A stretch of 64,000 nucleotides of DNA, taken from a virus. A program made the translations under genes and the position numbers. The notes below the pieces were generated by a model. That model was not told where the DNA came from, searched no databases, and saw nothing but the letters and a program-made list of their open reading frames with translations. Every line of letters starts with the position of its first letter. Positions within the stretch are counted from its first letter, which is position 1. Positions 1 through 40,373 of this stretch are shown here, piece after piece. The stretch is from IMG/VR virus record IMGVR_UViG_3300014039_000006. One strand, given 5' to 3'.

Positions 1-1
1 C

Positions 2-1324: not shown

Positions 1325-1341
1325 AAGGTAGGTGATAGATT

Positions 1342-1868: not shown

Positions 1869-1872
1869 GAAC

Positions 1873-2445: not shown

Positions 2446-2459
2446 AGGAGCAATGGATT

Positions 2460-3299
2460 ATGGCAATTAATAAAGTGGAATATAGCGGAAATACATTAAT
2501 TGACTTGACTTCTGACAGCGTGACACCGGAATCTTTGCTTTCCGGTGTCACTGCGCATGATGCGTCAGGAAATTTGATTACAGGAGAACTTAATCCGCAA
2601 AAAATATTTGATAATGCCGGATATCACAACAGTATTTTTCGCGGAAAGAACTTGGGAACGTCTGTCACGGAAGAACAATACGAAGCTATTTCTTCCGGAG
2701 AGTTCACAGATTTATTTGTTGGCGATTACTGGACTTTGAATAACGTAGTTTACCGTATCGTCGGCTTTGACCTGTTTTTACATACAGGAGATACAGAACT
2801 TACAACGCATCACGTTGTTATTGTTCCTGATAAAAATATGTACAGTCACGCGATGAACGATACAAATGTGACTACAGGTGGTTATTATAACAGCAAAATG
2901 AAACAAAGTGGTCTGACACAGGCTCTGACTACGGTAAAGGCGGCATTTGGTGAAAGTCACATAGTAAAAAGAAGAGTAATTTTGACGAATGCCATAAGTG
3001 GAGATAATCCATCCGGATGGGCGTGGTACGATACCTACATTGACCTTATGACAGAACGGCAGGTATATGGATCTCCTGCATGGGGACAGGCGGCACATAA
3101 TGGATATGATGCCGGATGTGAGTATTCAAGACTCCCATTGTTTACACTTGCACCGGAATTTATCACAAATAGAGCATGGTATTGGCTGCGAGATATCCGG
3201 TCGTCGTCTGCCTTCGCCGATGTCGGCAGCCTTGGCGGTGCCGACGGCGCCGGCGCGTCCTACTCCGGCGGGGTTCGCCCGCTTTTTTTAATCTCTTAA
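2460..3299 (+). CDS. DGR target protein 1 (putative receptor-binding protein with C-terminal variable region)
   Basis: AAGGAG SD. The C-terminus WYWLRDIRSSSAFADVGSLGGADGAGASYSGGVRPLFLIS is encoded by VR1. Lies directly upstream of avd-TR-RT. Confidence 0.85.
   Translation: MAINKVEYSGNTLIDLTSDSVTPESLLSGVTAHDASGNLITGELNPQKIFDNAGYHNSIFRGKNLGTSVTEEQYEAISSGEFTDLFVGDYWTLNNVVYRIVGFDLFLHTGDTELTTHHVVIVPDKNMYSHAMNDTNVTTGGYYNSKMKQSGLTQALTTVKAAFGESHIVKRRVILTNAISGDNPSGWAWYDTYIDLMTERQVYGSPAWGQAAHNGYDAGCEYSRLPLFTLAPEFITNRAWYWLRDIRSSSAFADVGSLGGADGAGASYSGGVRPLFLIS
3194..3281 (+). repeat. DGR variable region VR1
   Basis: Colinear with TR 3901-3988. All 21 mismatches are at TR adenine positions. Confidence 0.9.
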
Positions 3300-3309
3300 T
3301 CGTCAATCG

Positions 3310-3326
3310 CCGCCCCGTGTGGGCGG
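3310..3326 (+). promoter_or_regulatory. GC-rich hairpin downstream of VR1 (DGR target-recognition-type element)
   Basis: CCGCCC-CGTGT-GGGCGG lies 29 nt after the VR1 end. The same CGCCC-CGTGT-GGGCG core follows VR2 and VR3. Confidence 0.65.
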
Positions 3327-3349
3327 AGTTGACGGAGAAAGGAACATAT

Positions 3350-3877
3350 ATGTCAGAAATACCAAAGTCAAGAAGAAAAGAATCAAAATTAGAAGTAATC
3401 CACAAAGCATATAGACTACGTTCAAGAATAACAAATGAGCTAATATGCAGTTTCGGATATTCTCAAAAGAAATATGAAGCACATTTAAACAAGGCGGTAA
3501 GACATATTCGGGATGAAACAGAACGTAAGGAGAAGAAAGAAGTTTTACGCAAAATGGAAGAAAACTTTGATTTCTGGATTATTGAAAAAGAAAGAGATGA
3601 TATCCTGCATTACACAAAAGGGATCGTAAATCATCTTATATCTGCAAACACGATATATCCGGTCAACGTACCGGAATATGAAGAGCGAAGACTGGAAATG
3701 GACAGGGCATTAGTGTGTTGCACGTGTCTTCAACAGGAATTGCAGTACATTGCAGAAGTTCTTCCGTCCGACAAGAATAAATACATGAACATAGTGCTTG
3801 AAATTCAAACGATTCGAGAAATGATAAAGGGACTTCGACAATCTGACAACAGATTTTTAAGAGATATTAAGAAATAA
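3350..3877 (+). CDS. avd: Accessory variability determinant (Avd)-like protein
   Basis: 175-aa basic, helical-looking ORF between the target gene and TR, with a GGAGAAAGGAA SD. ATG at 3350 is chosen because the upstream part of track ORF 3176 overlaps VR1. Confidence 0.7.
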   Translation: MSEIPKSRRKESKLEVIHKAYRLRSRITNELICSFGYSQKKYEAHLNKAVRHIRDETERKEKKEVLRKMEENFDFWIIEKERDDILHYTKGIVNHLISANTIYPVNVPEYEERRLEMDRALVCCTCLQQELQYIAEVLPSDKNKYMNIVLEIQTIREMIKGLRQSDNRFLRDIKK

Positions 3878-3900
3878 GAAGTATGTTAGGGTAACCTTTG

Positions 3901-3988
3901 TATCCAGTCGTCGTCTAACTTCGCCAATGTCAACAACAATGGCAATGCCAACAACAACGACGCGTCCAACTCCAACGGAGTTCGCCCG
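3901..3988 (+). repeat. DGR template repeat (TR)
   Basis: Contains 26 adenines and reads as AAY-rich SSNFANVNNNGNANNNDASNSNGVRP. Matches VR1, VR2 and VR3. Confidence 0.9.
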
Positions 3989-4029
3989 ATTTCACAACTA
4001 CCTACTTGACATAGATTCTACTGGTAGCA

Positions 4030-5346
4030 ATGGGAAAGGAAAGGTTATCCATTCAGTGGAAACTGATAAAAGAAAATTCCGATATACTAAGTTACGACAA
4101 GGTATTAGAAACGGGGTTAAATATGAATCCATTAATAGATGCGAATAGTTTATATGACGCCGGAACACTTGCAATAAAAAGCAGCAGCTTCAAGTACAAA
4201 ACACAATTATTTGAAATGAACCATCTTTTGGAAACTGCATTATTGCAGAGAGAATTGCAAGAAGGAACGTATAAGCCGGAAAAAGGAACAAAGTTTCTGA
4301 TCCATGAAAGAGGAAAAATCAGATACATCACAAGCAACACGATGAGGGATAAAACGGTTAACCATGTGTTGTGTGATGAAATCGTCATACCATCCATAGA
4401 AAAGTACTTGATTTACGACAACAGCGCTTCGCAGAAAGGCAAGGGAACTTCTTTTGCCAGAAAGAGACTGGAAGAACACTTGCACAGTTATTATAGAAAA
4501 TATGGAACTAATGACGGCTATATCTTGTTGATGGATTTTTCTGGTTATTATGCAAATATTCCACACGATAAATGCAAGGACATTCTGTATAGAATGGTTT
4601 TCCGAGACGGACTTGAAGAAGAACCGACCAAAACAGTAATTGAAAATATTTTTAAATCCTACGAAATGGATGTTTCCTATATGTCTGATGAAGAAATAAA
4701 AGTCTTGTATAGCACAAAGGTAGATCCTGTAATGAACCAAAACGTTCCGAAAGAATTGCTTACAGAACAAAAGATGCTAAAGAAAGGAGCGGACATAGGA
4801 AATCAGCTTGCTCAAGCAATAGGAATTACTTTTCCTTATAAGATTGATAATTATGTGAAAATCGTAAGAGGGTGCAAATTTTACGCCAGATATACGGATG
4901 ACAGCTATATTATTTCGAGCGATAGGGAATTTTTGTTTGATGTTTTGGACGGTATTAAAGAAATTGCGGATGAACATGGAATCATATTGAACAAAAAGAA
5001 AACGAGGATAGTAAAGATTTCCTCGTTTTTCAGATTTATGCAGATAGGATATTCCCTAACTGCCACAGGAAAAGTGATAAAGAAAATAAATCCTAAAAAT
5101 GTGAGAAGGGAAAGGGTGAAGCTGAAAAAATATAAAAAGTTGTTAGATAATGGAAAAATGACATATGCAGACATAGAAAATTGCTTTAAGTCTTGGATAT
5201 GTACATACTGGAAAATTATGTCGCACCAACAATTATACAATATGAACGCCCTGTATAAGGAGCTGTTTGGAAAGGGAATAAAATGGAAAACGAAAAATTC
5301 ACGATTACATTGGTTGATGGAACACAGTTCACCGGACTTTCAATGA
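4030..5346 (+). CDS. DGR reverse transcriptase
   Basis: RT motifs: LLMDFSGYYANI, NSASQKGKG (SQ motif) and the catalytic YTDD box (ARYTDDSYII). Immediately downstream of TR. An alternative start is at 4123 (MNPLID). Confidence 0.85.
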   Translation: MGKERLSIQWKLIKENSDILSYDKVLETGLNMNPLIDANSLYDAGTLAIKSSSFKYKTQLFEMNHLLETALLQRELQEGTYKPEKGTKFLIHERGKIRYITSNTMRDKTVNHVLCDEIVIPSIEKYLIYDNSASQKGKGTSFARKRLEEHLHSYYRKYGTNDGYILLMDFSGYYANIPHDKCKDILYRMVFRDGLEEEPTKTVIENIFKSYEMDVSYMSDEEIKVLYSTKVDPVMNQNVPKELLTEQKMLKKGADIGNQLAQAIGITFPYKIDNYVKIVRGCKFYARYTDDSYIISSDREFLFDVLDGIKEIADEHGIILNKKKTRIVKISSFFRFMQIGYSLTATGKVIKKINPKNVRRERVKLKKYKKLLDNGKMTYADIENCFKSWICTYWKIMSHQQLYNMNALYKELFGKGIKWKTKNSRLHWLMEHSSPDFQ

Positions 5347-5949: not shown

Positions 5950-6315
5950 ATGGAAGAATGCATTAAATTAATTGCTGTATTGGCAATCCTAGCGTTGGCA
6001 AACATTGTCGGCGGTGTGGTAAACAATGTTAAGTTAAAGAAGTTTTCTTTCAGCTGGAAAAAACTGCTGAATGGAGTGATTCAGTTTTTAGGAATTGGAT
6101 TTATGTTTGTAGCGTTGGCATATTGCATAGAAACCATTCCAGAAATTGGAAATGCTCTGGGCGTACAACCCAAAACAATGATATTAGCTGCTATTACCAT
6201 ATATGCAAAGAAGATTTTCGAGCAGCTTAATGATTTTATCAATTTAAAGAAGGAAATAAAGGCAAATTCGGAAGAAGAAAAAGAAGAAGTAGACACAGAA
6301 TATATGGATATGTGA
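5950..6315 (+). CDS. Holin
   Basis: 121 aa with three hydrophobic segments and a charged C-terminal tail. Directly precedes the endolysin. GGAGG SD. Confidence 0.7.
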   Translation: MEECIKLIAVLAILALANIVGGVVNNVKLKKFSFSWKKLLNGVIQFLGIGFMFVALAYCIETIPEIGNALGVQPKTMILAAITIYAKKIFEQLNDFINLKKEIKANSEEEKEEVDTEYMDM

Positions 6316-6325
6316 GGTGGCAGAT

Positions 6326-7531
6326 ATGGAAGTAAAAGAGTTTATTGATAAAATTGCAGAAAAAACCATTGCATCTTGCAAGGATGTAAACCTGTTGCCG
6401 TCACCGTCCATTGCACAGGCAATTATAGAAAGTGCGCATGGGACCAGTCAGCTTGCGGTAGAAGCTAATGCGTTGTTTGGAATTAAGGCAGACAGTAGAT
6501 GGAGTGGAAAAACGTATCAGAAATCCACAAAAGAATTTCAAAACGGACAGTATGTTGATGTTGTGGCAAAATTTCGAATGTATGATACATGGGAAGAGTC
6601 TATTGAAGATCACGCACAGTTTCTTATAAAAAACAAAAGGTATTCAAACCTTGTAGGAGTAACGGATTACAAGGAATACTGCAAGTTGATAAAGGAAGAC
6701 GGATATGCTACTTCGCCTACATACATCCAAACACTTATTGATTGCATTGAAAAATACAACCTCACGCAGTATGATACCGATGAGGACCAGGAGGAAAAGC
6801 CGAAACAACCGAAAAAGATTCGGTCATTCAATGTTCATGCTGGGCATAACCCTAGCGGCAAAGTTGCTTGCGGTTCGGTGGGTTATCTGAACGAGTCCGA
6901 TGAAAACCGGAATGTCTGCAATGGATTGATTGAAAAAATCAAGAACGCCGGACACGTAGTTTATAACTGCACCTGTGATGACGGTACAAGCCAAAAAGAT
7001 GTATTGCAAAAGATTGTAGCAAAGTGCAATCAACATACGGTTGATCTTGATATTTCCGTTCACTTCAATGCCTTGTCAAAGGAATACATTTCAGACAGTA
7101 AGACAAAGGGCGTTGAGGTGTGGATTCATCCGAATAACAAGGGAAAAGAAGTTGAAAAAACTGCACAGGCAATTTGTGACAGCGTAGCCAAATTGGGATT
7201 TACAAACCGTGGCGTCAAGTATTCTGACGGTCTTTATGTTCTTAAGAACACAAAATCTCCGGCGATGCTGATTGAGTGTTGCTTTGTAGACGATGTAGAC
7301 GATTTCCAGCTTTATGAATGTTCCAAAATGGTACAGGCTATTTATGACGGTCTTTCCATTGAAACAGTGGAAGATAAGGAAGAAAAGAAGTTGTACTATG
7401 TCATTGCCGGTGTATATTCTTCGGAAGAAAATGCAAAGGCATTTGCGGAATCACTTGCAAGCAAGGGTTACCTGATGAATGCAGACGGCAACCTCATCCG
7501 TGGAATTACAACGCAGATTAAAGAAATGTAA
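6326..7531 (+). CDS. Endolysin (glucosaminidase + N-acetylmuramoyl-L-alanine amidase + SPOR-like domain)
   Basis: N-terminal LPSPSIAQAIIESAHGTS (glucosaminidase-type). Central HAGHNPSG...VHFNA (Amidase_3-type). C-terminal YYVIAGVYSSEENAKAFAESL (SPOR-like). Confidence 0.8.
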   Translation: MEVKEFIDKIAEKTIASCKDVNLLPSPSIAQAIIESAHGTSQLAVEANALFGIKADSRWSGKTYQKSTKEFQNGQYVDVVAKFRMYDTWEESIEDHAQFLIKNKRYSNLVGVTDYKEYCKLIKEDGYATSPTYIQTLIDCIEKYNLTQYDTDEDQEEKPKQPKKIRSFNVHAGHNPSGKVACGSVGYLNESDENRNVCNGLIEKIKNAGHVVYNCTCDDGTSQKDVLQKIVAKCNQHTVDLDISVHFNALSKEYISDSKTKGVEVWIHPNNKGKEVEKTAQAICDSVAKLGFTNRGVKYSDGLYVLKNTKSPAMLIECCFVDDVDDFQLYECSKMVQAIYDGLSIETVEDKEEKKLYYVIAGVYSSEENAKAFAESLASKGYLMNADGNLIRGITTQIKEM

Positions 7532-7537
7532 GAAAAT

Positions 7538-7568
7538 GGGGATGTCATTACGGCATCCCCTTATTTTT
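7538..7568. terminator. Bidirectional intrinsic terminator between the lysis genes and the repressor
   Basis: GGGGATG-N9-CATCCCC followed by TTATTTTTA. Convergent genes lie on both sides. Confidence 0.7.
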
Positions 7569-8361
7569 ATCTCACGCCTAAAGTCCCGTCAGAATTTAGA
7601 AATCCGACAATATATCCGATTTTATCATCAATGTCCCTATCTTTAAATACAAGGTTGCTATTGATAACGGAAATGTATTCCCATATTTTCTTCCCATTGA
7701 CAATTCTATGAGTTTTCTGCACCAGATAAATATATCCGTCAAGGGTAACAATGCATAATTCATTGTCAAGTGCGTCACGGTCAGCAGAAATCAAGATAAT
7801 TTCACCTTGCATAAAATGTGGCATATAATAGTTACACGGCATTTTCAAACCGCAGTAAACCTTATTTCTGATGGATTCGGGTAAGTCATTGATGCATAGG
7901 GTTTCCGTGACATTGGTTGTCATTAAGTGGCTGTCGAGATATTTGGGAGTAAAGACGGAAATGTATTTCTTCTTCCATTCAAGTTTCGAGTATATTTTCT
8001 GCTGATGCCGGATAAAATATCTCACCATGTACAAGGAATGTTCCGGAAGTGTTTTGCATATGGCAATAGATTCTTGCGTAACCGGGTTGATGCAATTTGC
8101 GCCAATCAAATCGTCAACACTGATTTTAAGAGCCTTTGCAATGGAAACGACCGTTGATAGCTGAATATCCTTTTTCCCCTTATCATAAAGGATATTATTT
8201 AGCGTTGCGGTAGATATTCCGGTAATTTCTGCAAACTCGCTTTGCGTCATATCCGGTTGCCCGGTATACAACATGATGTTGTTTCTCAAATTCTCAATAC
8301 AATTTTCTGAATCATTTGAGAGTTTTGTCGATAAATAACGTATTCTTTCTTCTGTTAACAT
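7567..8361 (-). CDS. CI-like repressor (XRE HTH plus C-terminal domain)
   Basis: HTH segment MTQSEFAEITGISTATLNNILYDKG...VVSIAKALKISVDDLIG. 264 aa, divergent from the early genes. Confidence 0.7.
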   Translation of the reverse strand: MLTEERIRYLSTKLSNDSENCIENLRNNIMLYTGQPDMTQSEFAEITGISTATLNNILYDKGKKDIQLSTVVSIAKALKISVDDLIGANCINPVTQESIAICKTLPEHSLYMVRYFIRHQQKIYSKLEWKKKYISVFTPKYLDSHLMTTNVTETLCINDLPESIRNKVYCGLKMPCNYYMPHFMQGEIILISADRDALDNELCIVTLDGYIYLVQKTHRIVNGKKIWEYISVINSNLVFKDRDIDDKIGYIVGFLNSDGTLGVR

Positions 8362-10565: not shown

Positions 10566-10850
10566 ATGAAAACATATACACAGTTAAGCGGAGAAGTGAT
10601 AAGAGGAAATGAGGAAGAAATTTATTTGACTAGAGTGCGGTCAAGTAACATTTTACAATCTTTTTTCTGCAATGAAGAAAGGCTATATTGCATTTCTTCC
10701 CATGATTCGAAATTGATTCACAAAGATAAATCATATGAAGATGCAGTAACAATGATTGTTGCAGAAGAGAAAGAAGAGATTACGCATTATTGTTACATAG
10801 TGATTGCAAATTGCTCTGGAACTTTTATATCTGAATGGGAGGATGTTTAA
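10566..10850 (+). CDS. Hypothetical protein
   Basis: AAAGGAG SD before the ATG at 10566. Confidence 0.5.
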   Translation: MKTYTQLSGEVIRGNEEEIYLTRVRSSNILQSFFCNEERLYCISSHDSKLIHKDKSYEDAVTMIVAEEKEEITHYCYIVIANCSGTFISEWEDV

Positions 10851-11263
10851 TGAAAAACCGAGAGAAATACGCAGACTTTCTTATTGAGTGTGCGATACGT
10901 GGAACAGGTGTTGCGGTTAACAAGGACGGCAAGCCTTGTAATTGCATGGATTTAGAGTGCGGAGATTGTCTTTTTAACAATCCGTCTGTGGATTGTGCAG
11001 AAATGACGAGAAAATGGGCGTACGCAGAGTATGAAGAGCCGAAAGTCGATTGGAGTAAAGTGCCGGTTGATACGAAGATGTGGGTTAGAAGTGCGAAAGA
11101 TAAGCCGTGGATTCCGAGACATTATTCAGGAATGAGAGATCGCTCGGGAAATCCGCTTGTATTTGAAGATGGTTGCACATCGTTTACTTGCGAAAGAGAT
11201 TCTTGCGGAAAGCCATTTTTAGGAGTTTATCTTGATTACAGATTTGATGAGGATATCTTATGA
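10850..11263 (+). CDS. Hypothetical protein
   Basis: GGGAGGA SD. Cys-rich. Confidence 0.5.
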   Translation: MKNREKYADFLIECAIRGTGVAVNKDGKPCNCMDLECGDCLFNNPSVDCAEMTRKWAYAEYEEPKVDWSKVPVDTKMWVRSAKDKPWIPRHYSGMRDRSGNPLVFEDGCTSFTCERDSCGKPFLGVYLDYRFDEDIL

Positions 11264-11667
11264 GAAAGAAATTGATTGTGTTTCTTCCTATTATAATGGC
11301 GTTTCTTTTATCCATTCCAGTCAAAGCCAATAACGAACCGTTTGTGATGCACACCACGGCATATTGCCAGGGAACGATAACTGCAAGCGGAACAAAGGTC
11401 AGACGTGGCATATGTGCCGTGAAGAAAGAATGGTTGGGAAAACTTGCCATTGTCTACGAATACAAGGACGGAGAGATCGGGGATGTTATCGGATATTATG
11501 AGTGCCTTGATACAGGATTTGGTGGCGATGCTGATGGTGACGGTATTGGAAGCATAGAAGCCGGAAGGTGCATTGATATTTATTTTCCAACTTTGGAAGA
11601 ATGTAAGGATTGGATGAAGCAGACAGGTGGAAAAGTATATGTCCAGCTTGTGGATGCGGAAGGTTAG
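11260..11667 (+). CDS. Secreted 3D-domain protein
   Basis: Signal-peptide-like MRKKLIVFLPIIMAFLLSIPVKA, then HTTAYCQGTITASGTKVRRGICAV (3D-domain type). Confidence 0.6.
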   Translation: MRKKLIVFLPIIMAFLLSIPVKANNEPFVMHTTAYCQGTITASGTKVRRGICAVKKEWLGKLAIVYEYKDGEIGDVIGYYECLDTGFGGDADGDGIGSIEAGRCIDIYFPTLEECKDWMKQTGGKVYVQLVDAEG

Positions 11668-11682
11668 GGAGAAGGTGAAGAA

Positions 11683-11811
11683 ATGTACATACCACCGTTT
11701 TGGTGCGGAGTGATTGCCACGATCTTATTTGAACTGGCAGTAACAATTATTATGGCATTTGCCGTAAGGACGAAACCGGAGAAAGGAGAGGAAGACGATG
11801 ATCGTAACTAA
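11683..11811 (+). CDS. Small membrane protein
   Basis: 42-aa ORF not in the track, with one hydrophobic helix (FWCGVIATILFELAVTIIMAFAV). Confidence 0.3.
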   Translation: MYIPPFWCGVIATILFELAVTIIMAFAVRTKPEKGEEDDDRN

Positions 11812-11949
11812 TTTTAATGAGATGAGCATTGAAGAACTGGAAGCTATTTGTGACACGCTCCACATGGAATTATCCATTAACGACGGAAAGATCGTAGGGG
11901 CAGAGGAATAGCACCTACAACGACCGGAAATCAGAATAGGTGCTATAAA

Positions 11950-12378
11950 GTGAATCAGCTATTGCTTTTTCATGCCCTATTATACCGGAGAAAGGAGAAA
12001 AAGTCAAACGTGACAAAAGATAGGATAGAAAAAATTCTTATGAATATGGGGATATATCCATATCATGTTGGGTTTAAGTATCTTGTAGAAGCGATCCCGT
12101 TAGCTTTTGAAACCTTAGGAAAAACATCATTTGCAATGTATATCTATTGCGAGGTTGGAGAGAAATGCGGAGTTGATTACAGGTGCGTAGAACGTGGAAT
12201 AAGAGAGTCGCTAAAGAACATCAAAAGAGATAGCAGCGATTTCAAAAAGTACATCGGGATTAACAAGAATGAAAAGGTTACCACGAAGAAATTTCTTTCC
12301 ATGTTTGCATACAATTCTTTAAAAGAAAGGGGTGAAAGAATTGAACGAGATACAAATAACAGGAACGGTATTGGATAA
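11950..12378 (+). CDS. Spo0A C-terminal-domain-like DNA-binding protein
   Basis: GIYPYHVGFKYLVEAIPLA...YCEVGEKCGVDYRCVERGIRESLKNI resembles the Spo0A effector domain. The true start may be internal (GTG 12010 or ATG 12040). Confidence 0.5.
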   Translation: MNQLLLFHALLYRRKEKKSNVTKDRIEKILMNMGIYPYHVGFKYLVEAIPLAFETLGKTSFAMYIYCEVGEKCGVDYRCVERGIRESLKNIKRDSSDFKKYIGINKNEKVTTKKFLSMFAYNSLKERGERIERDTNNRNGIG

Positions 12379-18677: not shown

Positions 18678-19034
18678 ATGAAGATTATTGAGGGAAAAGA
18701 AAAAGAATACAAGGAATGGTACGACAAAAATAGCGATGCTTATAGCAGAGCATGTTTTACATTCGCAGAAAGATGGGCGGAACTTTTGGAAGAAAAAATA
18801 GACAACTCTTCCGATTGCCCGATGAAGGTAATTGTCGATAACGCAGAACAATTAAGTGACGAAGCAGACACAGAAGGAATCACGGGATTTATGTATGGTT
18901 GCGCTGTTAATATTCTCTCGAGAGAATGGGAATACGGCGATGAATTGAGAAGATGGCATAACGGAAAATACGATTATCAGGGCGAAGGAACTGTAAATCC
19001 GGCTATTCTTACGGTTGGTGGCAAAGATGATTAA
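18678..19034 (+). CDS. Hypothetical protein
   Basis: 118-aa ORF in the array. Confidence 0.5.
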   Translation: MKIIEGKEKEYKEWYDKNSDAYSRACFTFAERWAELLEEKIDNSSDCPMKVIVDNAEQLSDEADTEGITGFMYGCAVNILSREWEYGDELRRWHNGKYDYQGEGTVNPAILTVGGKDD

Positions 19035-19731
19035 TCTGAAATGCCTATCTTCCGGAAGTAAAGGGAACTGCTATCTTCTGGAAGCTGATAACGGAGAAGT
19101 GCTTATCATTGATGCCGGAATACCAATCATGGATATTAAGCGTGGTCTGAACTGGAATGTAAGAAGTGTAGTCGGTGCGGTTGTTACGCACCGGCACACA
19201 GACCACAGTAAAAGCATTGATGATTTACGTCACATGGGAATAAGGGTTGTTGCACCGTATGAATCCGGAAATGTAAAGTCCATGAGTTTTTCGATGGGAA
19301 GTTTCAAGATGCAGGCTTTTGATGTTCCACATAACGGTTGTTGGAATAACGGATTTTTGATTAAGACTCCGGACGGACAGAAAATCTTGTATATGACCGA
19401 TTTGGAGTATTGCCCGTATTCTTTCCGGAAGCAGAGCGTAGACCATATGCTTATCGAGTGCAATTACATGAAATCACTGGTTGATACGGACGCTCCGAAT
19501 TATGTTCACAAGATTCGAGGTCACTGTGAACTGGAAACGACAAAAGGAATCGTCAAAGAGAACGCAACAAATAGCCTTGTAAACGTTATATTGTGTCATT
19601 TGGGGCGTGATACTTGCGAAGAGGACAAAGTTATCGAAGAAGTAAAAAAGATCGTTCCTAAAGCCAATGTGGACGTTGCAAAAGTCGGTAAGGAATGGAT
19701 TTTAAGAAAGGGCGGTGAGTGTCCGTTTTGA
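19015..19731 (+). CDS. Metallo-beta-lactamase-fold hydrolase
   Basis: HxHxDH motif in VVTHRHTDHSKS. 238 aa. Confidence 0.75.
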   Translation: MVAKMINLKCLSSGSKGNCYLLEADNGEVLIIDAGIPIMDIKRGLNWNVRSVVGAVVTHRHTDHSKSIDDLRHMGIRVVAPYESGNVKSMSFSMGSFKMQAFDVPHNGCWNNGFLIKTPDGQKILYMTDLEYCPYSFRKQSVDHMLIECNYMKSLVDTDAPNYVHKIRGHCELETTKGIVKENATNSLVNVILCHLGRDTCEEDKVIEEVKKIVPKANVDVAKVGKEWILRKGGECPF

Positions 19732-19900: not shown

Positions 19901-20332
19901 ATGAATAAAGTAATTATATGTGGAAGACTTGTCCGTGATCCGGAAGTGAGATATTCACAGGGAGAAAAGTCAACGGCTATCGCAAGGTACACGGTAGCGG
20001 TAGACCGGAAATTTAAAAAAGACGGAGAACAGAGCACAGATTTTATTAGCTGCATTGCTTTTGGAAAGCCGGCTGAATTTGCGGAAAAGTATCTCCGCAA
20101 GGGAATTAAGATGCTGATTGTCGGTCGCATTCAGACCGGAAGTTACACAAACAAGGACGGTCAGAAAGTCTACACGACAGACGTTGTTGTTGAGGAACAG
20201 GAGTTTTCAGAAAGCAAAAATTCTTCTCAATCTGCAAATCAGAACACGCAAGCACCTCCCGTTGGCGAATCTACTGGCGATGAATTTATGAGCATTCCGG
20301 ACGGAATCGACGAAGAACTACCATTTAACTAA
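19901..20332 (+). CDS. ssb: Single-stranded DNA-binding protein
   Basis: MNKVIICGRLVRDPEVRY...FISCIAFGKPAEFAEKYLRKG and an acidic C-terminal tip DEELPF. Confidence 0.9.
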   Translation: MNKVIICGRLVRDPEVRYSQGEKSTAIARYTVAVDRKFKKDGEQSTDFISCIAFGKPAEFAEKYLRKGIKMLIVGRIQTGSYTNKDGQKVYTTDVVVEEQEFSESKNSSQSANQNTQAPPVGESTGDEFMSIPDGIDEELPFN

Positions 20333-20923: not shown

Positions 20924-20938
20924 TTGGAGGAAAAGAAA

Positions 20939-21505
20939 ATGAAGGTAAAAAGAACAGTAACAATGAAAGTTAGCAATTTTGAGGTTGGCGATCGGATCAC
21001 CGTAAAACTTTCTGGATATGGGAAGTTTACGGCTACGGCACACGAGATCACAGACAAGGGAACACTATTTATCTTTGATGATTGTGTTTGTGAAAGACAA
21101 ATGAACGAAGAAAATACGAATGAAGGTGGATATTTGGAATCAGACCTTAGAAAGTTTGTGGCACAGGATCTGTTAAAGGCATTTCCGGATAAACTTTTGG
21201 AGAGAATGGCAAAGGACGATAACGGAGATCTACTTTCCATTCCGACCTACGGACAGGTTTTGGGTAAAGACTGGGACGATGAGTGGGATGAGAAAAACAT
21301 TGAGATCGACAAGAGAGAACAATTGCCACTGATGCAGAAAAGAAAGAACCGGATTGCAGATTTACAAAACGAATGGACATGGTACTGGTTGCAAAATAAA
21401 GTCCTGTCGTCGTCTGCCTTCGCCGGTGTCGGCGGCGATGGCTATGCCGGCTACGCCGGCGCGTCCGACTCCGGCGGGGTTCGCCCAGCTTTCCTAATCA
21501 AGTAA
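20939..21505 (+). CDS. DGR target protein 2 (remote VR; paralogue of 27084..27653)
   Basis: C-terminus WYWLQNKVLSSSAFAGVGGDGYAGYAGASDSGGVRPAFLIK is encoded by VR2. TTGGAGGA SD before the ATG at 20939. Confidence 0.85.
   Translation: MKVKRTVTMKVSNFEVGDRITVKLSGYGKFTATAHEITDKGTLFIFDDCVCERQMNEENTNEGGYLESDLRKFVAQDLLKAFPDKLLERMAKDDNGDLLSIPTYGQVLGKDWDDEWDEKNIEIDKREQLPLMQKRKNRIADLQNEWTWYWLQNKVLSSSAFAGVGGDGYAGYAGASDSGGVRPAFLIK
21401..21486 (+). repeat. DGR variable region VR2
   Basis: Colinear with TR. All 22 internal mismatches are at TR adenines. Confidence 0.9.
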
Positions 21506-21512
21506 TCATTAA

Positions 21513-21535
21513 TCCACGCCCCGTGTGGGCGTGGA
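21513..21535 (+). promoter_or_regulatory. GC hairpin downstream of VR2
   Basis: TCCACGCCC-CGTGT-GGGCGTGGA, identical to the copy after VR3. Confidence 0.65.
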
Positions 21536-21565
21536 AATGGAAGTAAATTAAAGGAGTGACAAGAA

Positions 21566-27066: not shown

Positions 27067-27083
27067 GAATGGAGGAATTTAAA

Positions 27084-27653
27084 ATGAAAGCATGGAGAAA
27101 AGTAAAAATGGAGATCAAAAACTATGAGGTCGGAGATCAGATCGCGGTGAAACTCAAAGGCTTCGGAAAATTTACTGCAACGGCACAGAGAGTTTATGAC
27201 GATGGAAAAACGCTGTTTCTTTTCGATAACTGCGTTGCAGAACGGCAGATGAACGAAAACGGTTCAAATTCCGGAGGTTTTTATGAATCCGACTTATGCA
27301 AGTGGATGAATACAGAATTGGTGAAAACTTTTCCCACTAAACTTCTTGACCGCATGATTTATACGAACGAAGAACATGAATGCCTGCTTCGAATTCCGAC
27401 AAGAAAGGAAATGTTCGGAGAAGATGAATATAGTCAATATTACGAACCGGATAACGAGGAACAATTTGAACTTATGAAAGACAGAAAAAACCGTGTTTGT
27501 TCTCTTCCTGATGATGAATATGCATGGTATTGGTTGATGAATGCGCATCTCCGGTCGTCGTCTTACTTCGCCCCTGTCAGCGCCAGTGGCCGTGCCAACG
27601 GCTTCGGCGCGTCCAGCTCTGGCGGGGTTCGCCCGGCTTTCCTAATCAAGTAA
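27084..27653 (+). CDS. DGR target protein 3 (remote VR; paralogue of 20939..21505)
   Basis: C-terminus WYWLMNAHLRSSSYFAPVSASGRANGFGASSSGGVRPAFLIK is encoded by VR3. The N-terminal ~140 aa align with target 2. Confidence 0.85.
   Translation: MKAWRKVKMEIKNYEVGDQIAVKLKGFGKFTATAQRVYDDGKTLFLFDNCVAERQMNENGSNSGGFYESDLCKWMNTELVKTFPTKLLDRMIYTNEEHECLLRIPTRKEMFGEDEYSQYYEPDNEEQFELMKDRKNRVCSLPDDEYAWYWLMNAHLRSSSYFAPVSASGRANGFGASSSGGVRPAFLIK
27548..27635 (+). repeat. DGR variable region VR3
   Basis: Colinear with TR. 20 mismatches are at TR adenines, plus one C->T at 27620. Confidence 0.9.
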
Positions 27654-27660
27654 TCATTAA

Positions 27661-27683
27661 TCCACGCCCCGTGTGGGCGTGGA
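27661..27683 (+). promoter_or_regulatory. GC hairpin downstream of VR3
   Basis: TCCACGCCC-CGTGT-GGGCGTGGA. Confidence 0.65.
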
Positions 27684-27719
27684 AATGGAAGTGAAATTAA
27701 AATTTCGGAGGTAAAGTAG

Positions 27720-28307
27720 ATGGCACAATATAGAACAAAATCATGTGAAATTGAAGCAATTCAATGGACTGATAATACAAATGAAATAAAATCATTTTGT
27801 GGAAATAGTTGCACATATTCCGTAGAAGAACAGTGCATGGGAAGTTGGAAAGGCATTCCGATCGAGAGATTGATTATTCACACATTGGAAGGAGATATGG
27901 TTGCAAGCAGAAACGACTACATCATAAAAGGATTGAAAGGTGAATTTTATCCATGCAAGCCAGATGTATTTAACCAAAAGTATAAATTAATAAATGATAC
28001 TATGGAAATACAAGAAGAGCAGAGATGGATACCGGTAACTGAAAGGTTGCCAGAAGAACTTACACCAGTAAATATTACGTGGATAAATAGAAATCCTGAA
28101 CAATATTATGCGGATATAAAGGATGTTCCTTTTTCCACTACAGGAGTTTTTCATCGCGGAAAGTGGTATTGGTGGTCTACGGTAGTTGTTGATTATCTTT
28201 CAGAATATGGAAGATATGACATGGATTTGGTAGATAAAGATATTGAAATTATAGCATGGCAACCGTTGCCGGAGCCGTACAAAGGAGAAAATAACCACAA
28301 TATGTAG
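27720..28307 (+). CDS. DUF551-type phage protein
   Basis: WIPVTERLPEE motif. GGAGG SD. Confidence 0.6.
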   Translation: MAQYRTKSCEIEAIQWTDNTNEIKSFCGNSCTYSVEEQCMGSWKGIPIERLIIHTLEGDMVASRNDYIIKGLKGEFYPCKPDVFNQKYKLINDTMEIQEEQRWIPVTERLPEELTPVNITWINRNPEQYYADIKDVPFSTTGVFHRGKWYWWSTVVVDYLSEYGRYDMDLVDKDIEIIAWQPLPEPYKGENNHNM

Positions 28308-28333
28308 CAATCCCGGATTACAAGATATTGTAT
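28293..28333. repeat. 41-bp imperfect-palindrome repeat, copy 1
   Basis: AACCACAATATGTAGCAATCCCGGATTACAAGATATTGTAT matches 39326-39366 at 38 of 41 positions, in the same orientation. Confidence 0.8.
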
Positions 28334-30233: not shown

Positions 30234-31598
30234 ATGAATTGTGTCGCATATATGCGTGTTTCAACGGAGAAACAAGCAGAAGAAGGAAATGGATTGGATA
30301 GTCAAAAACGGGATATCGAAATATATTGTCGCAAAAATGAGTTGATTATATCCGATTGGTATATTGATGACGGATATACAGGAGCGAATACCGATAGACC
30401 GGCTTTGCAAAGGCTGATTACGGATTGTTCAAAACACAGGATAAAATGCATAGTTGCTTTTAAACTGGACAGGCTTTCACGTAGCATGGTTGATGGAATA
30501 TACTTGATAGAGAGAGTTTTCATGCCAAATCAAGTAGAATTTAAGTGCGTGCATGACAGTGTAAGCTATGATAGTCCTATGGAACAAGCATACACACAAA
30601 TGATGGCTGTATTTGCACAACTTGATAAAAACACGATGCTGTTGAGAATGCGCGGAGGAATGCTTGAAAGAGTAAAAAAAGGATATTGGATGGGCGGTGG
30701 AAATACACCTTATTGTTACCGATATGATACTGAATCCGGTACACTGATTCCGATACCTGAAAGAGCAGAACAGGCAAGGCAAGCGTTAGAAATGTTCATA
30801 AACGGATATTCTGATGAACAAATAATGAAAATGTTTGGATATAAAAGCGAATTTGTTGTCAGAAGAATACTTACCGGAGTTGTAAACATTGGGATGATAC
30901 CGTACAAAGGAGAGGTTTTTCAAGGACTTCACGAACCTATCTTTGATAAAAGCCGGTTTGAACTTGCACAGGAAATAAGAAAGTCCAGAAGAATAACAAG
31001 GACAAAATGCTTTGACCGAGAAACAAATTTGCTTACTGGATTATGTTATTGTGGCGTGTGCGGTTGCAAAATGAGATACCAGAAATGGACTCATGGAAAG
31101 CACAGGATTTATTGCTGTTCCAGAAACAAGGATTTAAACTATCTTCCGAACTGGTCTGAAAATTGCGATAATTCTCTTGTGTGGGCGATTGATATTGAGA
31201 AGCAAGTTGAAAAAGAGATACTGAAAATATCCGTTAATCTTTCAAAAAGCAAGCCAAAAGAGAAGAAAAGTAAACTTGAAATCATGGAATCACAGCTTGA
31301 TAAAGAGAAAGTAAAGTTAAAAAGGCTTTATTCTTTATACGCAGACGGAAACGACACCGTTCTTGACATGATTAAAGACCTAGAACTGAAAATTGATGGG
31401 ATGAAGATGAAAATAACAGAAGAAGCCAAAAGTCCGTTGAATACACAGAAGAAAGAGTTTGTTTATGAAAATATAAAAAACCTTGCCGATATGTGGGGTC
31501 ACATTGACAAGGCTAAGAAAAACTCTATATTAAAAAGCATAATATCTAAAATTGTAATTGTCAATGATGATATTGAAATACAATTAAAAAACTTTTAG
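30234..31598 (+). CDS. Large serine recombinase (integrase)
   Basis: N-terminal AYMRVSTEKQAEEGNGLDSQ catalytic domain, recombinase domain, zinc ribbon CYCGVCGCKMRY and a C-terminal coiled coil. 454 aa. Confidence 0.9.
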   Translation: MNCVAYMRVSTEKQAEEGNGLDSQKRDIEIYCRKNELIISDWYIDDGYTGANTDRPALQRLITDCSKHRIKCIVAFKLDRLSRSMVDGIYLIERVFMPNQVEFKCVHDSVSYDSPMEQAYTQMMAVFAQLDKNTMLLRMRGGMLERVKKGYWMGGGNTPYCYRYDTESGTLIPIPERAEQARQALEMFINGYSDEQIMKMFGYKSEFVVRRILTGVVNIGMIPYKGEVFQGLHEPIFDKSRFELAQEIRKSRRITRTKCFDRETNLLTGLCYCGVCGCKMRYQKWTHGKHRIYCCSRNKDLNYLPNWSENCDNSLVWAIDIEKQVEKEILKISVNLSKSKPKEKKSKLEIMESQLDKEKVKLKRLYSLYADGNDTVLDMIKDLELKIDGMKMKITEEAKSPLNTQKKEFVYENIKNLADMWGHIDKAKKNSILKSIISKIVIVNDDIEIQLKNF

Positions 31599-34234: not shown

Positions 34235-34921
34235 ATGCATATCAAAAGAATCCATGAAATGTTAGAGTGTCTTACCGAAGTAGCAAAGACACAGCTTGAT
34301 AAAGGAGCCAGTTGCGTAAACACGGACGAAATGGGTAAGGTGGTAGACATGATTAAGGATCTTACCGAAGCGGAGTATCATGCCCTTATCGCAAAGTCCA
34401 TGGAAGAATACGAAGAAGAGGAAAAGGAAGCCGAGAAATTCCGTCTGCATCTTTTTGAGGAAAGGTTTGGAGAAGATGAAGGAAGAAGATTTTACGACCA
34501 TTACAGATACGCTAATGGAAGATTCGCACCTAAAGGATCCGGAACATATAGACGTAATTATACTCCTTATCTTGGCAGTTCTTCTTTCATGCCTGAATGG
34601 GACGAAAACGAACCCATGTCCCAAAGAAGAATGAGGGACATGGACAGGCACGACGGAAGAATGTATTATACCGAACCGTCTTATCAGAGTAATAGCCGTG
34701 AATACAGTGAAAGCCGATATGACAAGGCAAGACGTATGTACACGGAAAGCAAGGAAATGCATAAGGCGAATACACAGACCGATAAAGACCAGAAGATGAA
34801 AGACCTTGAAAACTATTTCAAGGAGATTTCCGAGGACTTAACCGATGTGATTTCTGACGCTACGGCAGAGGAAAAAGCCATGTTGAGAACAAAATTAACC
34901 GGACTTGCCGGAAGAATTTAG
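34235..34921 (+). CDS. Hypothetical charged/low-complexity protein
   Basis: AAAGGAG SD. R/Y/E/D/M-rich central region. Confidence 0.55.
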   Translation: MHIKRIHEMLECLTEVAKTQLDKGASCVNTDEMGKVVDMIKDLTEAEYHALIAKSMEEYEEEEKEAEKFRLHLFEERFGEDEGRRFYDHYRYANGRFAPKGSGTYRRNYTPYLGSSSFMPEWDENEPMSQRRMRDMDRHDGRMYYTEPSYQSNSREYSESRYDKARRMYTESKEMHKANTQTDKDQKMKDLENYFKEISEDLTDVISDATAEEKAMLRTKLTGLAGRI

Positions 34922-35055
34922 ATGATAGGGGCAGAAATGCCCCTATTCCTGTACATTGACAACTAAATAGTGGCTAGTGATTAAGGCGTCTAAAGTTGAT
35001 TAATTTTATCGAATATGGTAGAATTTTCCCATCATAAAAGAGAGGGGATATACAT

Positions 35056-36405
35056 ATGAAGATTTGTCCTAAATGCAGTTCATTTGCAAATGATGATTCA
35101 AATTTCTGTCCAAGATGTGGATCTAACCTTGATACCAATATTCCGGTTTCTAATCATTCACAATTAAGAACGGAGAAAAACAAGAATAAAGTGTCTGCAT
35201 CTGCAATAGTAGCTACTGTTATAGGAACTATTGCTTTGTGCCTGTACTTTAGTTATTTTTCATTATTTGTTGGAACGGTAGGTATAATTGTTGGAATTAT
35301 TGCGATTGCGCTATCAAGATCGGATAGGAGCAGATTTATTTCAATAATCGGAATTTCATTTTCAGTATTGGCTTTTATTACATTCTTTGCCTTTCAAAGA
35401 GAACAGGCTAATAATGAAAAACCAAATGAACAAAAAGAAGAAATTGCCGTTGAAACACCTAGTCCGACCGTTGAACCGACAGAAGCACCTATAAACTATA
35501 AAGAAGTTTTTCTCTATGATTTGATTTTGAATAGTACATCGTATGTAAATCAATATGTGGAAACTTCATTTTCCATACATTATTGTTATCCAAAAGAAAA
35601 TGATGGATTAACGGAAATTGCGAGTGAATATACGGATTATGACTTAACCGGAGAAATGGATAATATTTTTATTTATCTTGACGGGTTAGTGGAGTATGAA
35701 ATGGATCAGTATATTACTGTCCGAGGAAGGTTTGTATACAAAGATTCTAGATACTGTATTATTGATGCCGAGGTTACCGACATTGGTTCGCAATCCGAGA
35801 AGAGTTTTCAAGACGGTCTCATCATTTACACGCATTACCGGAACGAGGAATTACAGGCAAGCAAGGAAAGTTTTATTGCAAGTTGTGTGGAAGTGTCCTA
35901 TGATGATCTTTTGCGTTATCCGGAAACCTATCAAGATGTGCCGATTAAACTCACCATAGTTGCATCTGATGTAAAAGCAGACGGTTGGATTTTCAAGGGA
36001 GATATTCTTGCGGAGTATCAAGGCGGCGACTTGATTGTGTTTGACGATCGAGAAGTCCGTGAGCCGAGACTTGTTAACGGAGATAAGGTGACCGTTTATG
36101 CGACAGGTGACGGACTTGGAAAGATGAAGATAAAAGAGGATCGTTTCATATACGAAAAGACCGTAGATGATTACAACGTACCGCAGATAAGCATTAAGTA
36201 CACGGAGTGGGATAAAGCGTTTACGGAAATGGATAGCAGTTCAAAGGCAAGCGACGACGGCGACCTCTATGATGAAGGTAAGCGTGCCGGAGATGACCTT
36301 GCAGAAACACTAGGAGAAATTGATTGGGACGAAAACAAGGAAGATGCGAGAGAAGCCGGAGAAGAACTTGCGGAATACATAAACGAAATAATAGGTGCAG
36401 AATAA
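35056..36405 (+). CDS. Zinc-ribbon membrane protein
   Basis: CPKCSSF...CPRCGS, then three hydrophobic segments, a large extracytoplasmic-looking domain and an acidic tail. Confidence 0.6.
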   Translation: MKICPKCSSFANDDSNFCPRCGSNLDTNIPVSNHSQLRTEKNKNKVSASAIVATVIGTIALCLYFSYFSLFVGTVGIIVGIIAIALSRSDRSRFISIIGISFSVLAFITFFAFQREQANNEKPNEQKEEIAVETPSPTVEPTEAPINYKEVFLYDLILNSTSYVNQYVETSFSIHYCYPKENDGLTEIASEYTDYDLTGEMDNIFIYLDGLVEYEMDQYITVRGRFVYKDSRYCIIDAEVTDIGSQSEKSFQDGLIIYTHYRNEELQASKESFIASCVEVSYDDLLRYPETYQDVPIKLTIVASDVKADGWIFKGDILAEYQGGDLIVFDDREVREPRLVNGDKVTVYATGDGLGKMKIKEDRFIYEKTVDDYNVPQISIKYTEWDKAFTEMDSSSKASDDGDLYDEGKRAGDDLAETLGEIDWDENKEDAREAGEELAEYINEIIGAE

Positions 36406-38891: not shown

Positions 38892-39325
38892 GTAAAAATC
38901 GTAGTAATCGCGTACTAATGATTTTTGAGATTTTCCGTGAAAACCGATTTTCAAAAATCTCGGGAAAAACGCCAAAAAAAGATGTCACCCCAAAAAAGTC
39001 CGGGAGAAAAAAATTTCTTTCTTCCTCCCGGCTCCCTTCGCCCAACTCTAACGGCAATGCGATTATTTATATTGTACCCATACCGACTACACACCGGCGA
39101 AACTCCGGCATCATACCGGCATTAATACGGCGGCGGTTGTGTGCGCTACTGCCTACGCTGAAATCCGCACACGGCGTTAGAGGGGCACAATCAGACCATA
39201 CAAGCATAAATATATTATGGTATGGTACAATGCCATAATAAAGCCTATTAGCGGCGTTGTCAAGGTGCATTCTGATCCGTATTGTGTCAACCTGTCTACT
39301 TTAAAAGTGACAAAATAACACTTTT

Positions 39326-39366
39326 AACCACAATATATAGCAATCCCGGATCGCAAGATATTGTAT
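39326..39366. repeat. 41-bp imperfect-palindrome repeat, copy 2
   Basis: AACCACAATATATAGCAATCCCGGATCGCAAGATATTGTAT. Confidence 0.8.
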
Positions 39367-39973: not shown

Positions 39974-40112
39974 TACAACTATTTAATTCAATGCATTTGT
40001 GGTTGCAATCTTCAATGCTTCCGGCAAATACGATTATATCGTTTCCGTCCTCACTCTTTTCTACTACGCAAAAGCCAAAATAATTATGATATGTTATATA
40101 ATATTCGTTCAT
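39969..40112 (-). CDS. Hypothetical 47-aa protein (mini-operon ORF2)
   Basis: Not in the track. MNEYYITYHNYFGFCVVEKSEDGNDIIVFAGSIEDCNHKCIELNSCR. Confidence 0.4.
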   Translation of the reverse strand: MNEYYITYHNYFGFCVVEKSEDGNDIIVFAGSIEDCNHKCIELNSCR

Positions 40113-40124
40113 TCCTTTCCCCTT

Positions 40125-40192
40125 CTAGCCTGTCATCATCGGAGCCGGGCGGCTGTCCCACGGCTGACGCTCCGGAGAGCGTTTCGACTATT
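40125..40192 (-). ncRNA. Hammerhead type II-like element 1
   Basis: Minus strand: ATAGTC-GAAA-CGCTC-TCCG-GAGCG-TC|AGCCG/CGGCT-CCGATGA-T-GAC. Confidence 0.55.
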
Positions 40193-40373
40193 TGTTTTCA
40201 ATTTCTTCTTTATATCTTTCTGCTTCTTCCAGTGTTGCGAAGTGTTTGCCAAATCCGCAATATGCAAATGTCTTTCCACCGTCAACGCTTCTAAAGATCA
40301 TAGCGTTGTAGTTGTAAATGTTTGCGACTGGAAAATGTAATTTCTGGATTTCTACCTTTTCGATTGTTTTCAT
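40188..40373 (-). CDS. Hypothetical 61-aa protein (mini-operon ORF1)
   Basis: AAAGGAGAG SD. Confidence 0.55.
   Translation of the reverse strand: MKTIEKVEIQKLHFPVANIYNYNAMIFRSVDGGKTFAYCGFGKHFATLEEAERYKEEIENK

Follow-up and report, generated by a model that had tools for sequence, protein, structure and literature searches.

A small DUF6273 protein encoded among early phage genes as a probable remote target of a diversity-generating retroelement

Results

Template and variable regions of the retroelement

The window analysed here, that is, the whole stretch of 64,000 nucleotides of IMG/VR virus record IMGVR_UViG_3300014039_000006, covers most of a ~67-kb phage genome (sister contigs measure 67.1-68.9 kb). 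It encodes a diversity-generating retroelement (DGR) consisting of a template repeat (TR), a reverse transcriptase (RT) and an Avd-like accessory gene. Our subject is the second of its variable regions (VR2), which forms the 3' end of a distant gene for a 188-aa protein. The retroelement and its targets are laid out as follows:

2460-3299, plus strand: target gene 1, a tail-side fibre-like protein of 279 aa that contains VR1 (3195-3280) and is followed by a hairpin (3301-3334)
3350-3877, plus strand: Avd-like accessory gene, 175 aa (phrog_3206 'Avd protein of DGR', E=2.8e-5, a weak match)
3902-3987, plus strand: TR with 26 adenines, reading I Q SSS N FA N V NNN G N A NNN D AS N S N G VRP in the frame of the VR
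4030-5346, plus strand: DGR reverse transcriptase, an open reading frame (ORF) of 438 aa (Pfam RVT_1, E=1.6e-12; phrog_1423, E=1e-51)
20939-21505, plus strand: target gene 2, a stand-alone DUF6273 protein of 188 aa, with GGAGG at 20926-20930, 8 nt before the ATG
21401-21486, plus strand: VR2, codons 155-183, in which 11 AAY and 3-4 other adenine-containing TR codons are rewritten
21487-21539, plus strand: 3' module of VR2, with a flank AGCTTTCCTAATCAAGTAATC unlike the TR flank (an asymmetry of the IMH versus IMH* type, for initiation of mutagenic homing), then a GC hairpin at 21507-21539
27069-27653, plus strand: target gene 3, 194 aa, containing VR3 (27549-27634); Pfam DUF6273 (E=2.6e-12) and phrog_21980; a paralogue of target 2

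The repeat family in the window comprises four members, one of them adenine-rich (3902-3987) and three adenine-poor (3195-3280, 21401-21486 and 27549-27634). A preliminary description, made from the sequence alone, had correctly recognised TR, VR1 and VR2, three members of the family, and did not mention the fourth, VR3. As the adenine-rich copy sits between the Avd-like ORF and the RT, it is the TR of a DGR. In an ungapped alignment of TR with VR2, 22 of the 86 positions differed, and all 22 fell on the 26 TR adenines versus none on the 60 other positions (hypergeometric P=8.8e-17), in full agreement with what had been claimed for this pair. The adenine count drops from 26 in TR to 4 in VR2. 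Relative to the same TR, VR1 has 21 mismatches at adenines and none elsewhere, and VR3 has 20 at adenines and one elsewhere. VR2 begins 17.5 kb from the start of TR (the 17.4 kb given previously were slightly short, although the region is indeed remote), and the VR3 gene lies 23.6 kb from TR.

VR2 makes up the in-frame, C-terminal residues 155-183 of the 188-aa ORF, and the peptide quoted in the preliminary description is exact. Read in the frame of the VR, TR contains 11 AAY codons, which adenine substitution cannot turn into stop codons; none can arise in VR2, whose theoretical variant space amounts to ~5e14. The VR2 protein has kept the invariant scaffold WYWLQNK..SSS.FA.V...G.A....AS.S.GVRP. 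As a separate observation, substitutions are strongly shifted towards A>G (17 G, 3 T and 2 C in VR2; 16, 2 and 3 in VR1; 12, 3 and 5 in VR3), and the variable codons of 46 orthologues specify mostly Gly, Asn, Tyr, Asp, Ala, Ser and Thr, a paratope-like composition. Both the A>G bias and the residue composition could be due to a bias of the RT or to selection.

The cognate RT and Avd genes flank TR on the same replicon. The RT has 1471 homologues, and the members of its cluster are 407 or 438 aa long; because most orthologues begin at Met32, the likely start is at 4123. Its sequence contains the motifs IGNQLAQ and YTDD, which may be typical of DGR enzymes. The weak profile match of the Avd-like gene is supported by synteny, for its position and a clear similarity are shared with an ORF (34541-35095) of Fontainebleau (ON453893), an Acutalibacter phage obtained as an induced prophage of the OMM12 consortium.

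Information flow from TR to VR is directed by the asymmetry between IMH and IMH*. All three VRs in the window end in a common GTTCGCCC and continue with a flank that is not that of TR; from the last homologous position up to the hairpin, VR2 and VR3 have almost the same sequence and VR1 one that resembles it, and TR departs from all three. A GC-rich hairpin follows ~27 nt 3' of each VR, with a 9-bp stem, a CGTGT loop and a stability of -13 to -14.6 kcal/mol (z -4.2 to -5.4), and none of 200 shuffles folded as well as the hairpin of any VR. For VR2, the 9-bp core stem spans 21513-21535 around the CGTGT loop (DNA fold dG -13.1, z -5.4, 0 of 200 shuffles as stable); the hairpin of VR3 lies at 27655-27687 (z -4.7). 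The same fold and shuffle test found no hairpin 3' of TR (z +0.28). Since three VRs carry the cognate module, one TR rewrites three genes.

Homing into the remote variable regions

In an alignment of 46 orthologues of the VR2 protein, entropy peaks exactly at the TR-adenine codons, and the scaffold residues between them are invariant. In comparisons with the 15 closest homologues, differences number 5-12 over the 26 VR residues and 6-26 over the 162 others, and within the VR all differences (or 10 of 11) are at adenine codons. Expressed as percentages for orthologues, 31-46% of residues differ inside the VR and 4-16% outside it. At the level of sequence, these comparisons show purifying selection on the scaffold and free variation at the programmed codons.

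A second line of evidence comes from a sister lineage, whose RT belongs to the same 90%-identity cluster (98%-identical representative P0121) and from which ten TR+VR1 loci were recovered. Its TR departs from that of the window by five non-adenine differences (C>T, C>T, C>G, C>T, C>T). On a contig where TR, VR1, VR2 and VR3 are all present (ERZ808299 NODE_360), VR2 and VR3 carry the sister alleles at five of five sites. The sister-lineage VR1 carries the alleles of its TR as well, and the three VRs of the window carry those of the window. Such a concerted pattern is explained only by copying from the resident TR.

A 58-kb relative (L026, L017, L018; ERZ808252 NODE_243) serves as a swapped-cassette control. 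Here, the TR+VR1 cassette was exchanged by recombination, and VR1 fits the new TR without a single non-adenine mismatch, while VR2 and VR3 show 9-10 non-adenine mismatches to the resident TR and only 0-1 to the TR of the old lineage. The non-adenine imprint of the remote VRs is thus written by the TR that last homed, and remote VRs can be orphaned. Besides, VR1 and VR2 both differ between genomes whose RT protein and TR are identical; a VR2 that stays static while VR1 varies, the outcome that had been said to speak against a remote target, was not seen between genomes. In another relative (L020), the TR (2779-2864) has 20 adenines instead of 24, with A>G changes at its 3' end that give GGC codons as in the VRs; this may be a VR-to-TR back-conversion or decay of the TR.

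With the 3' hairpin, the variation confined to adenine codons, the concerted evolution and the swapped-cassette control, the earlier proposal of VR2 as a target in trans holds, and we consider it almost certain that VR2 would prove a true DGR target.

Target proteins

The VR2 protein matches Pfam DUF6273 (E=4e-9) and phrog_21980 (E=3e-57), and many of its 508 homologues are exactly 188 aa long and 76-93% identical. It shares 52% identity with target 3 (E=9e-64), and its residues 18-188 align with residues 94-279 of target 1 (29% identity, E=5e-14). Target 1 possesses a ~93-aa N-terminal extension that is missing from the small targets and whose first ~45 aa are common to the fibre ORF 1873-2445; we infer that this extension is a virion-attachment module. 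All 188 aa of the VR2 protein, by contrast, make up one domain, with no attachment or trimerisation domain. In line with what had been noted before, it lacks any hydrophobic segment (maximum Kyte-Doolittle score over 19 aa, 0.62), signal peptide or lipobox. Nor does it qualify as a tentaclin, a type defined by an N-terminal DUF6273 domain with a 5'-proximal VR followed by immunoglobulin (Ig)-like domains (PMC10743442): it has no Ig-like domain, and its VR is C-terminal.

A hidden Markov model search over 1.8 billion representatives (E<=1e-3) returned 2,751 family members. Among the best 150 of these, 85 were stand-alone proteins (160-215 aa), 54 had N-terminal extensions and 4 were giant multi-repeat proteins; none of the 85 stand-alone representatives had an N-terminal hydrophobic stretch. 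Regarding known defence or anti-defence families, Pfam returned only DUF6273 for the VR2 protein and PADLOC nothing for any of the target proteins, a dedicated anti-defence library not being part of the search.

The AlphaFold2 model of the VR2 protein (76 homologues; pLDDT 78, pTM 0.79) is of low confidence only at the hypervariable residues 158-177. In a Foldseek search of the PDB, the sole significant match was the IgA peptidase of Thomasclavelia ramosa, the N-terminal domain of which is annotated as DUF6273 (PMC12402451). Against predicted viral structures, Foldseek recovered small and large DUF6273 proteins, including ones annotated as tail fibres and receptor-binding proteins (RBPs). Tudor/KOW-like Foldseek matches of the N-terminus were dismissed as noise (E>0.5), and a profile search against PDB sequences gave chance-level matches only.

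Genomic context

Apart from the retroelement, the following features of the window frame the VR2 gene:

1-3299: tail fibres, followed by the DGR core (3350-5346) and by holin and endolysin genes (5950-7531)
7567-8361, opposite strand: repressor
From 13213: SbcC-like gene
From 16210: RecT gene
18678-19034, plus strand: Tad4, a type I Thoeris inhibitor (Pfam, E=7e-34), 1.9 kb upstream of the VR2 gene
19015-19731, plus strand: metallo-beta-lactamase (MBL)-fold hydrolase (Pfam Lactamase_B/B_2), its start overlapped by the Tad4 gene
19901-20332, plus strand: single-stranded DNA-binding protein (SSB; phrog_44, E=2e-51), 0.6 kb upstream of the VR2 gene (phrog_392 is also among the matches of this upstream block)

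Downstream of SSB follow a helix-turn-helix (HTH) gene, the VR2 gene, genes for DUF551 and GIY-YIG-like proteins, a methyltransferase (23625), a DnaD-like gene (25095) and a helicase loader. Next come a further HTH gene, the VR3 gene, a serine recombinase (30234), TerL (47836), portal, capsid and the tape measure (58436-62755). The VR3 gene has an HTH regulator on one side and a DUF551 gene on the other, and lies downstream of the DnaD-like and helicase-loader genes. Structural genes (TerL, portal, capsid, tape measure) occupy 47.8-62.8 kb and start ~26 kb from the VR2 gene. Rather than adjoining the tail module or the DGR cassette, the VR2 gene lies 17.5 kb off, among genes for SSB, RecT, DnaD and methyltransferase functions. 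Its placement on the early, replication side of the genome had been described before, and the neighbours (SbcC-like, RecT, Tad4, MBL hydrolase, SSB, HTH, methyltransferase, DnaD-like and helicase-loader genes) agree with it. The gene shares its strand with the lytic early genes, among which it is closely packed, the repressor being on the other strand. Directly upstream of it, sister genomes have two or three cytosine-methylase genes. A promoter and terminator scan gave background levels and was uninformative on timing. We also considered the MBL hydrolase as an Apyc1 anti-Pycsar enzyme and rejected this, as only 'faint' precomputed matches of its relatives point there and the window protein itself matches only generic Lactamase_B families.

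Other elements of the window are recorded for completeness. Two serine recombinases lie mid-genome, a 454-aa large serine integrase (30234-31598) and a 191-aa resolvase/invertase (43703-44278). Sister genomes carry a tyrosine integrase after VR3 instead; integration modules are thus exchangeable. On the minus strand, 40124-40189 matches the Rfam type II hammerhead ribozyme (43.1 bits; gathering score 37) inside a plus-strand ORF (39999-40340) among small ORFs. The stretch 44422-46664 holds a tRNA-Gln(UUG) (44422-44494) and a tRNA-like element (44942-45057) with a 54-nt insertion in the anticodon arm, which Rfam calls (41.6 bits) and ARAGORN does not. The element sits directly upstream of the gene for a 516-aa DUF2828/DUF7788 protein (phrog_850 'RNA-binding protein'), an arrangement that recalls the pairing of a Ro60-like protein with a tRNA mimic of the Y-RNA/YrlA type. 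A 42-nt direct repeat, TAACCACAATATrTAGCAATCCCGGAT..CAAGATATTGTAT, occurs at 28292-28333 and 39325-39366 (93% identical, 11 kb apart). The tail-fibre-like ORF 101-1324 contains a 42-nt (14-aa) periodic repeat, 'SHAEGYxTxASG', in two blocks within 36-1008.

Recurrence in other phages

The layout sought in other genomes combines two targets, one fibre-like and next to Avd-TR-RT, the other a small DUF6273 protein of the early region, and includes the hairpin and mismatches at adenines only. In Fontainebleau, a 45%-identical homologue of 189 aa is encoded in the replication module, between PolA (DNA polymerase I) and a helicase and 25 kb from TR, with all core mismatches of its VR at adenines. Like the window, this phage encodes Avd, RT and a homologous target on the fibre side, and both of its VRs are followed by a GC hairpin; it differs in having one remote target, another replication machinery (PolA, helicases) and a 39-kb genome. 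Its DGR goes unmentioned in the paper that gave the phage its name. The same layout is found in L038, a phage family of 53 kb, with the small gene 4.8 kb from TR among DUF6353 genes and a DUF5906 primase-like gene. The synteny with these genes recurs in 36 of 36 relatives in GTDB genomes, and at none of the 36 prophage loci is there a structural marker within 10 kb of the small gene. The hosts are almost all gut Clostridia (Blautia, Enterocloster, Hungatella, Dorea, [Ruminococcus] torques, Oscillospiraceae, Acutalibacteraceae). In two further genomes (L034 and L039), the small gene is found in the first early-gene block after the integrase.

A 68.5-kb relative with the same backbone (L030, logan ERR11010924_165; likewise L031) has a complete extra DGR in the early region, between the SbcC-like gene and RecT. 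It consists of an Avd-like gene (10566-10937), a TR (~10964-11032) and a 343-aa RT (11138-12169), and serves two adjacent small lectin-like proteins (201 and 194 aa) with adenine-specific mismatches. The VR2-type gene of this genome (8001-8570) does not fit the TR of the extra DGR, and its protein is identical in >20 contigs. From Fontainebleau, the 53-kb family, the published phage Toutatis (see Discussion), the GTDB loci and this extra DGR, it follows that small stand-alone DUF6273 proteins of the early region are a recurrent class of DGR target. Moreover, an 86%-identical VR2 protein is encoded in a different, 90-kb backbone (L013, ERZ26858460 NODE_165, with PcfJ, tyrosine integrases, HicAB and a GpA-type terminase), where no cognate TR was located; the small target gene is thus mobile among phages.

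Megablast of window positions 17-30 kb against 50,697 phage records gave no match, and in a tblastn search of the phage collection (E<=1e-5) Fontainebleau was the only one. A degenerate TR/VR scaffold pattern (adenines as N) had zero matches in IMG/VR, JGI metagenomes and GTDB genomes, because the lineage is absent from those sets and sister TRs differ at non-adenine sites; a re-derived pattern found only further copies of VR2 and VR3. A single-protein scan of IMG/VR yielded one 65% relative, the RT relatives there being too distant for use.

Discussion

Taken as a whole, the best explanation of the locus is probably that VR2 is a working, non-adjacent target of a single DGR and that the small protein is an off-virion binder. 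By homology to the DGR of BPP-1, TR 3902-3987 would be transcribed, the Avd/RT pair would make a cDNA of it with random misincorporation opposite adenines, and this cDNA would replace any VR that bears the cognate 3' recognition module. One TR would then diversify the adjacent tail-fibre-like protein and two small paralogues 17.5 and 23.6 kb away; at VR2, the randomised codons lie within the 34 C-terminal residues of a DUF6273 domain that stands alone. The small protein, we further suppose, would be co-expressed with the early genes and would be a variable binder that is soluble and has no anchor.

The mechanism of the BPP-1 DGR is well established. Its target Mtd and the window have in common the adenine-specific transfer from TR to VR, a core of Avd and RT, a C-terminal VR in a domain that is of C-lectin type in Mtd and putatively so here, the 3' GC hairpin and the IMH/IMH* asymmetry. 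However, Mtd is encoded beside the cassette, has 381 aa including beta-prism and sandwich attachment domains and is the proven tip of the tail fibre, whereas the VR2 protein consists of nothing but a 188-aa domain, its gene lying 17.5 kb from the cassette among early genes. Neither by sequence nor with Foldseek did we detect a match between the VR2 protein and Mtd.

Contrary to the novelty implied by the preliminary description, targets of this kind have been published. Non-adjacent targets in prophages were catalogued in 2018 by Wu et al. (PMC5758913), and small DUF6273 second targets are known from nd4/nd12 (PMC10743442), Lelie and CP11 (PMC11792537) and FP_Toutatis (10.1101/2024.10.15.618418); the largest metagenomic survey was confined to adjacent targets and could not detect remote ones (PMC8144416). 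In FP_Toutatis (Toutatisvirus), Lelie and CP11, as in the window, one TR serves a DUF6273 protein beside Avd-TR-RT, on the tail or head side, and a small remote DUF6273 protein (10.1101/2024.10.15.618418, PMC11792537). The remote VR of Toutatis is 17,480 nt away, compared with 17.5 kb here, and C-terminal in both cases (10.1101/2024.10.15.618418). The gene that contains it, gp24 (10.1101/2024.10.15.618418), sits between methyltransferases and the replication initiator, gene placement being the part of the published account that we confirmed. A kinship suggested by the near-equal distances was rejected, as the two genomes share no detectable similarity. Toutatis has an unrelated backbone and host, the window has two remote paralogous targets (three VRs in all), and the adjacent target is a fibre-like protein here versus a Hoc-like tentaclin there. 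The tgt2 proteins of nd4 and nd12 (Baykov et al. 2023, PMC10743442) resemble the VR2 protein as small single-domain DUF6273 second targets with a C-terminal VR; they differ in size (234 and 294 aa), in their flanking helices and in being part of the DGR cassette, and an early-region location is not reported in the accessible text (PMC10743442). Trans-homing of one TR into dispersed VRs with a common recognition element is also seen in the TvpA family of Treponema denticola and other cellular DGRs, whose targets, though, are chromosomal and mostly lipoproteins or surface proteins, while those of the window are phage-borne and signal-less (PMC5758913). Remote small DUF6273 targets are hence of a known kind; what the published accounts, to the extent available, seem to lack is their consistent early-module placement and their anchor-less form, neither of which we found stated there.

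As for what the VR2 protein does, the case is evenly poised: judged from its sequence features, it may be active away from the virion and not be a receptor-binding protein fixed to the tail. A role other than adsorption is plausible, its grounds being gene position and the missing anchoring and export signals only. Several points weigh against such a role, or against diversification being ongoing. Gene position alone is no proof of timing or of absence from virions. The VR2 domain is homologous to the fibre-side target and to the DUF6273 domains of tail fibres. Where published papers assign small DUF6273 targets a role, it is presumed receptor binding, or else called 'not entirely clear'. Some VR2 alleles are frozen across samples (P0002 in 3 samples, P0055 in >20 contigs); diversification is therefore episodic and may have stopped in some lineages. 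Finally, a C-type-lectin or FGE-like fold had been expected in the preliminary description, and DUF6273 is reported as C-type-lectin-like, but in the PDB Foldseek search the VR2 protein model did not recover Mtd, TvpA or FGE; with the VR loop modelled at low confidence, the putative C-lectin assignment therefore rests on the literature and the Pfam family.

The main rival reading, possible if rather unlikely, is that the small protein is a virion-associated accessory receptor-binding protein, a Mtd-like adhesin whose gene merely lies apart from the tail genes and which docks non-covalently on the fibre or baseplate, so that the DGR would diversify several adhesins for host range. The whole-domain homology to the tail-side target and the occurrence of DUF6273 domains in tail fibres and RBP-annotated viral proteins fit this view, as does the consistent pairing of the small target with a fibre-side target of the same TR, and it is the reading preferred in PMC10743442 and 10.1101/2024.10.15.618418. 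Such an adhesin, however, would have to manage without an N-terminal attachment or trimerisation domain, when the fibre-side protein has ~93 extra residues and Mtd its prism and sandwich domains (PMC10743442). In addition, placement in the early or replication module in at least five unrelated backbones is unexpected for a late structural gene, and a relative even has a dedicated DGR within its early region.

We regard it as improbable that the protein is a released or lysogeny-expressed extracellular binder, reaching the outside at lysis or by non-classical export, which would mask receptors on debris or sibling cells (thereby protecting progeny or excluding superinfection) or benefit the lysogen. 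A 2026 preprint proposes a secreted, lysogeny-expressed role for the Mushuvirus DUF6273 tentaclin and so provides an earlier case of a DUF6273 protein that is diversified by a DGR and belongs to the secretome of a lysogen (10.64898/2026.05.08.723808); the TR shared with a receptor-binding fibre and the position in the first early block after the integrase in L034 and L039 point in the same direction. Yet neither the VR2 protein nor its 85 stand-alone relatives have a signal peptide or lipobox, the gene is packed with lytic early genes on their strand and opposite to the repressor, and VR1, VR2 and VR3 have mutated independently, with no common specificity residues. VR2 might also be a mere fossil, descended from a duplicated fibre-tip domain that matched TR in the past but has ceased to be mutagenised or to function in this genome. 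The orphaned VR2 and VR3 of the 58-kb relative and the alleles frozen over many samples may lend this some support. It is hardly credible, though, given that over 86 nt VR2 differs from the resident TR at adenines only, that its hairpin and ORF are intact, that scaffold residues are conserved in hundreds of homologues and that VR2 differs among genomes of identical TR.

To our knowledge, phage DGRs have almost always been explained as host-range devices on tail fibres, and most DGR targets are unannotated. The use of one TR for a fibre tip and for one or two bare, lectin-like proteins of the early region is widespread, conserved and under selection. Going beyond the off-virion binder that we favour, the stand-alone, signal-less early-region DUF6273 proteins, encoded beside Tad4, methyltransferase and replication genes, might form a conserved class of intracellular, early-expressed and DGR-diversified binders, comparable to a programmable antibody against variable host factors, with which polymorphic defence proteins might be evaded or neutralised, or host machinery captured. 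We hold this to be unlikely, and a 2026 survey reports no DGR aimed at known anti-defence proteins (10.64898/2026.03.05.709809). If true, phage DGRs would serve counter-defence or host takeover as well as adsorption. No report of virion presence or of an adsorption requirement for any homologue was found in the literature, and with Fontainebleau (Acutalibacter muris, OMM12) and FP_Toutatis (Faecalibacterium), phages of the same architecture are in culture, which makes the question directly testable. If the site of action of these proteins proves to be intracellular or off-virion, phages would put targeted hypermutation to a second, unexplored use.

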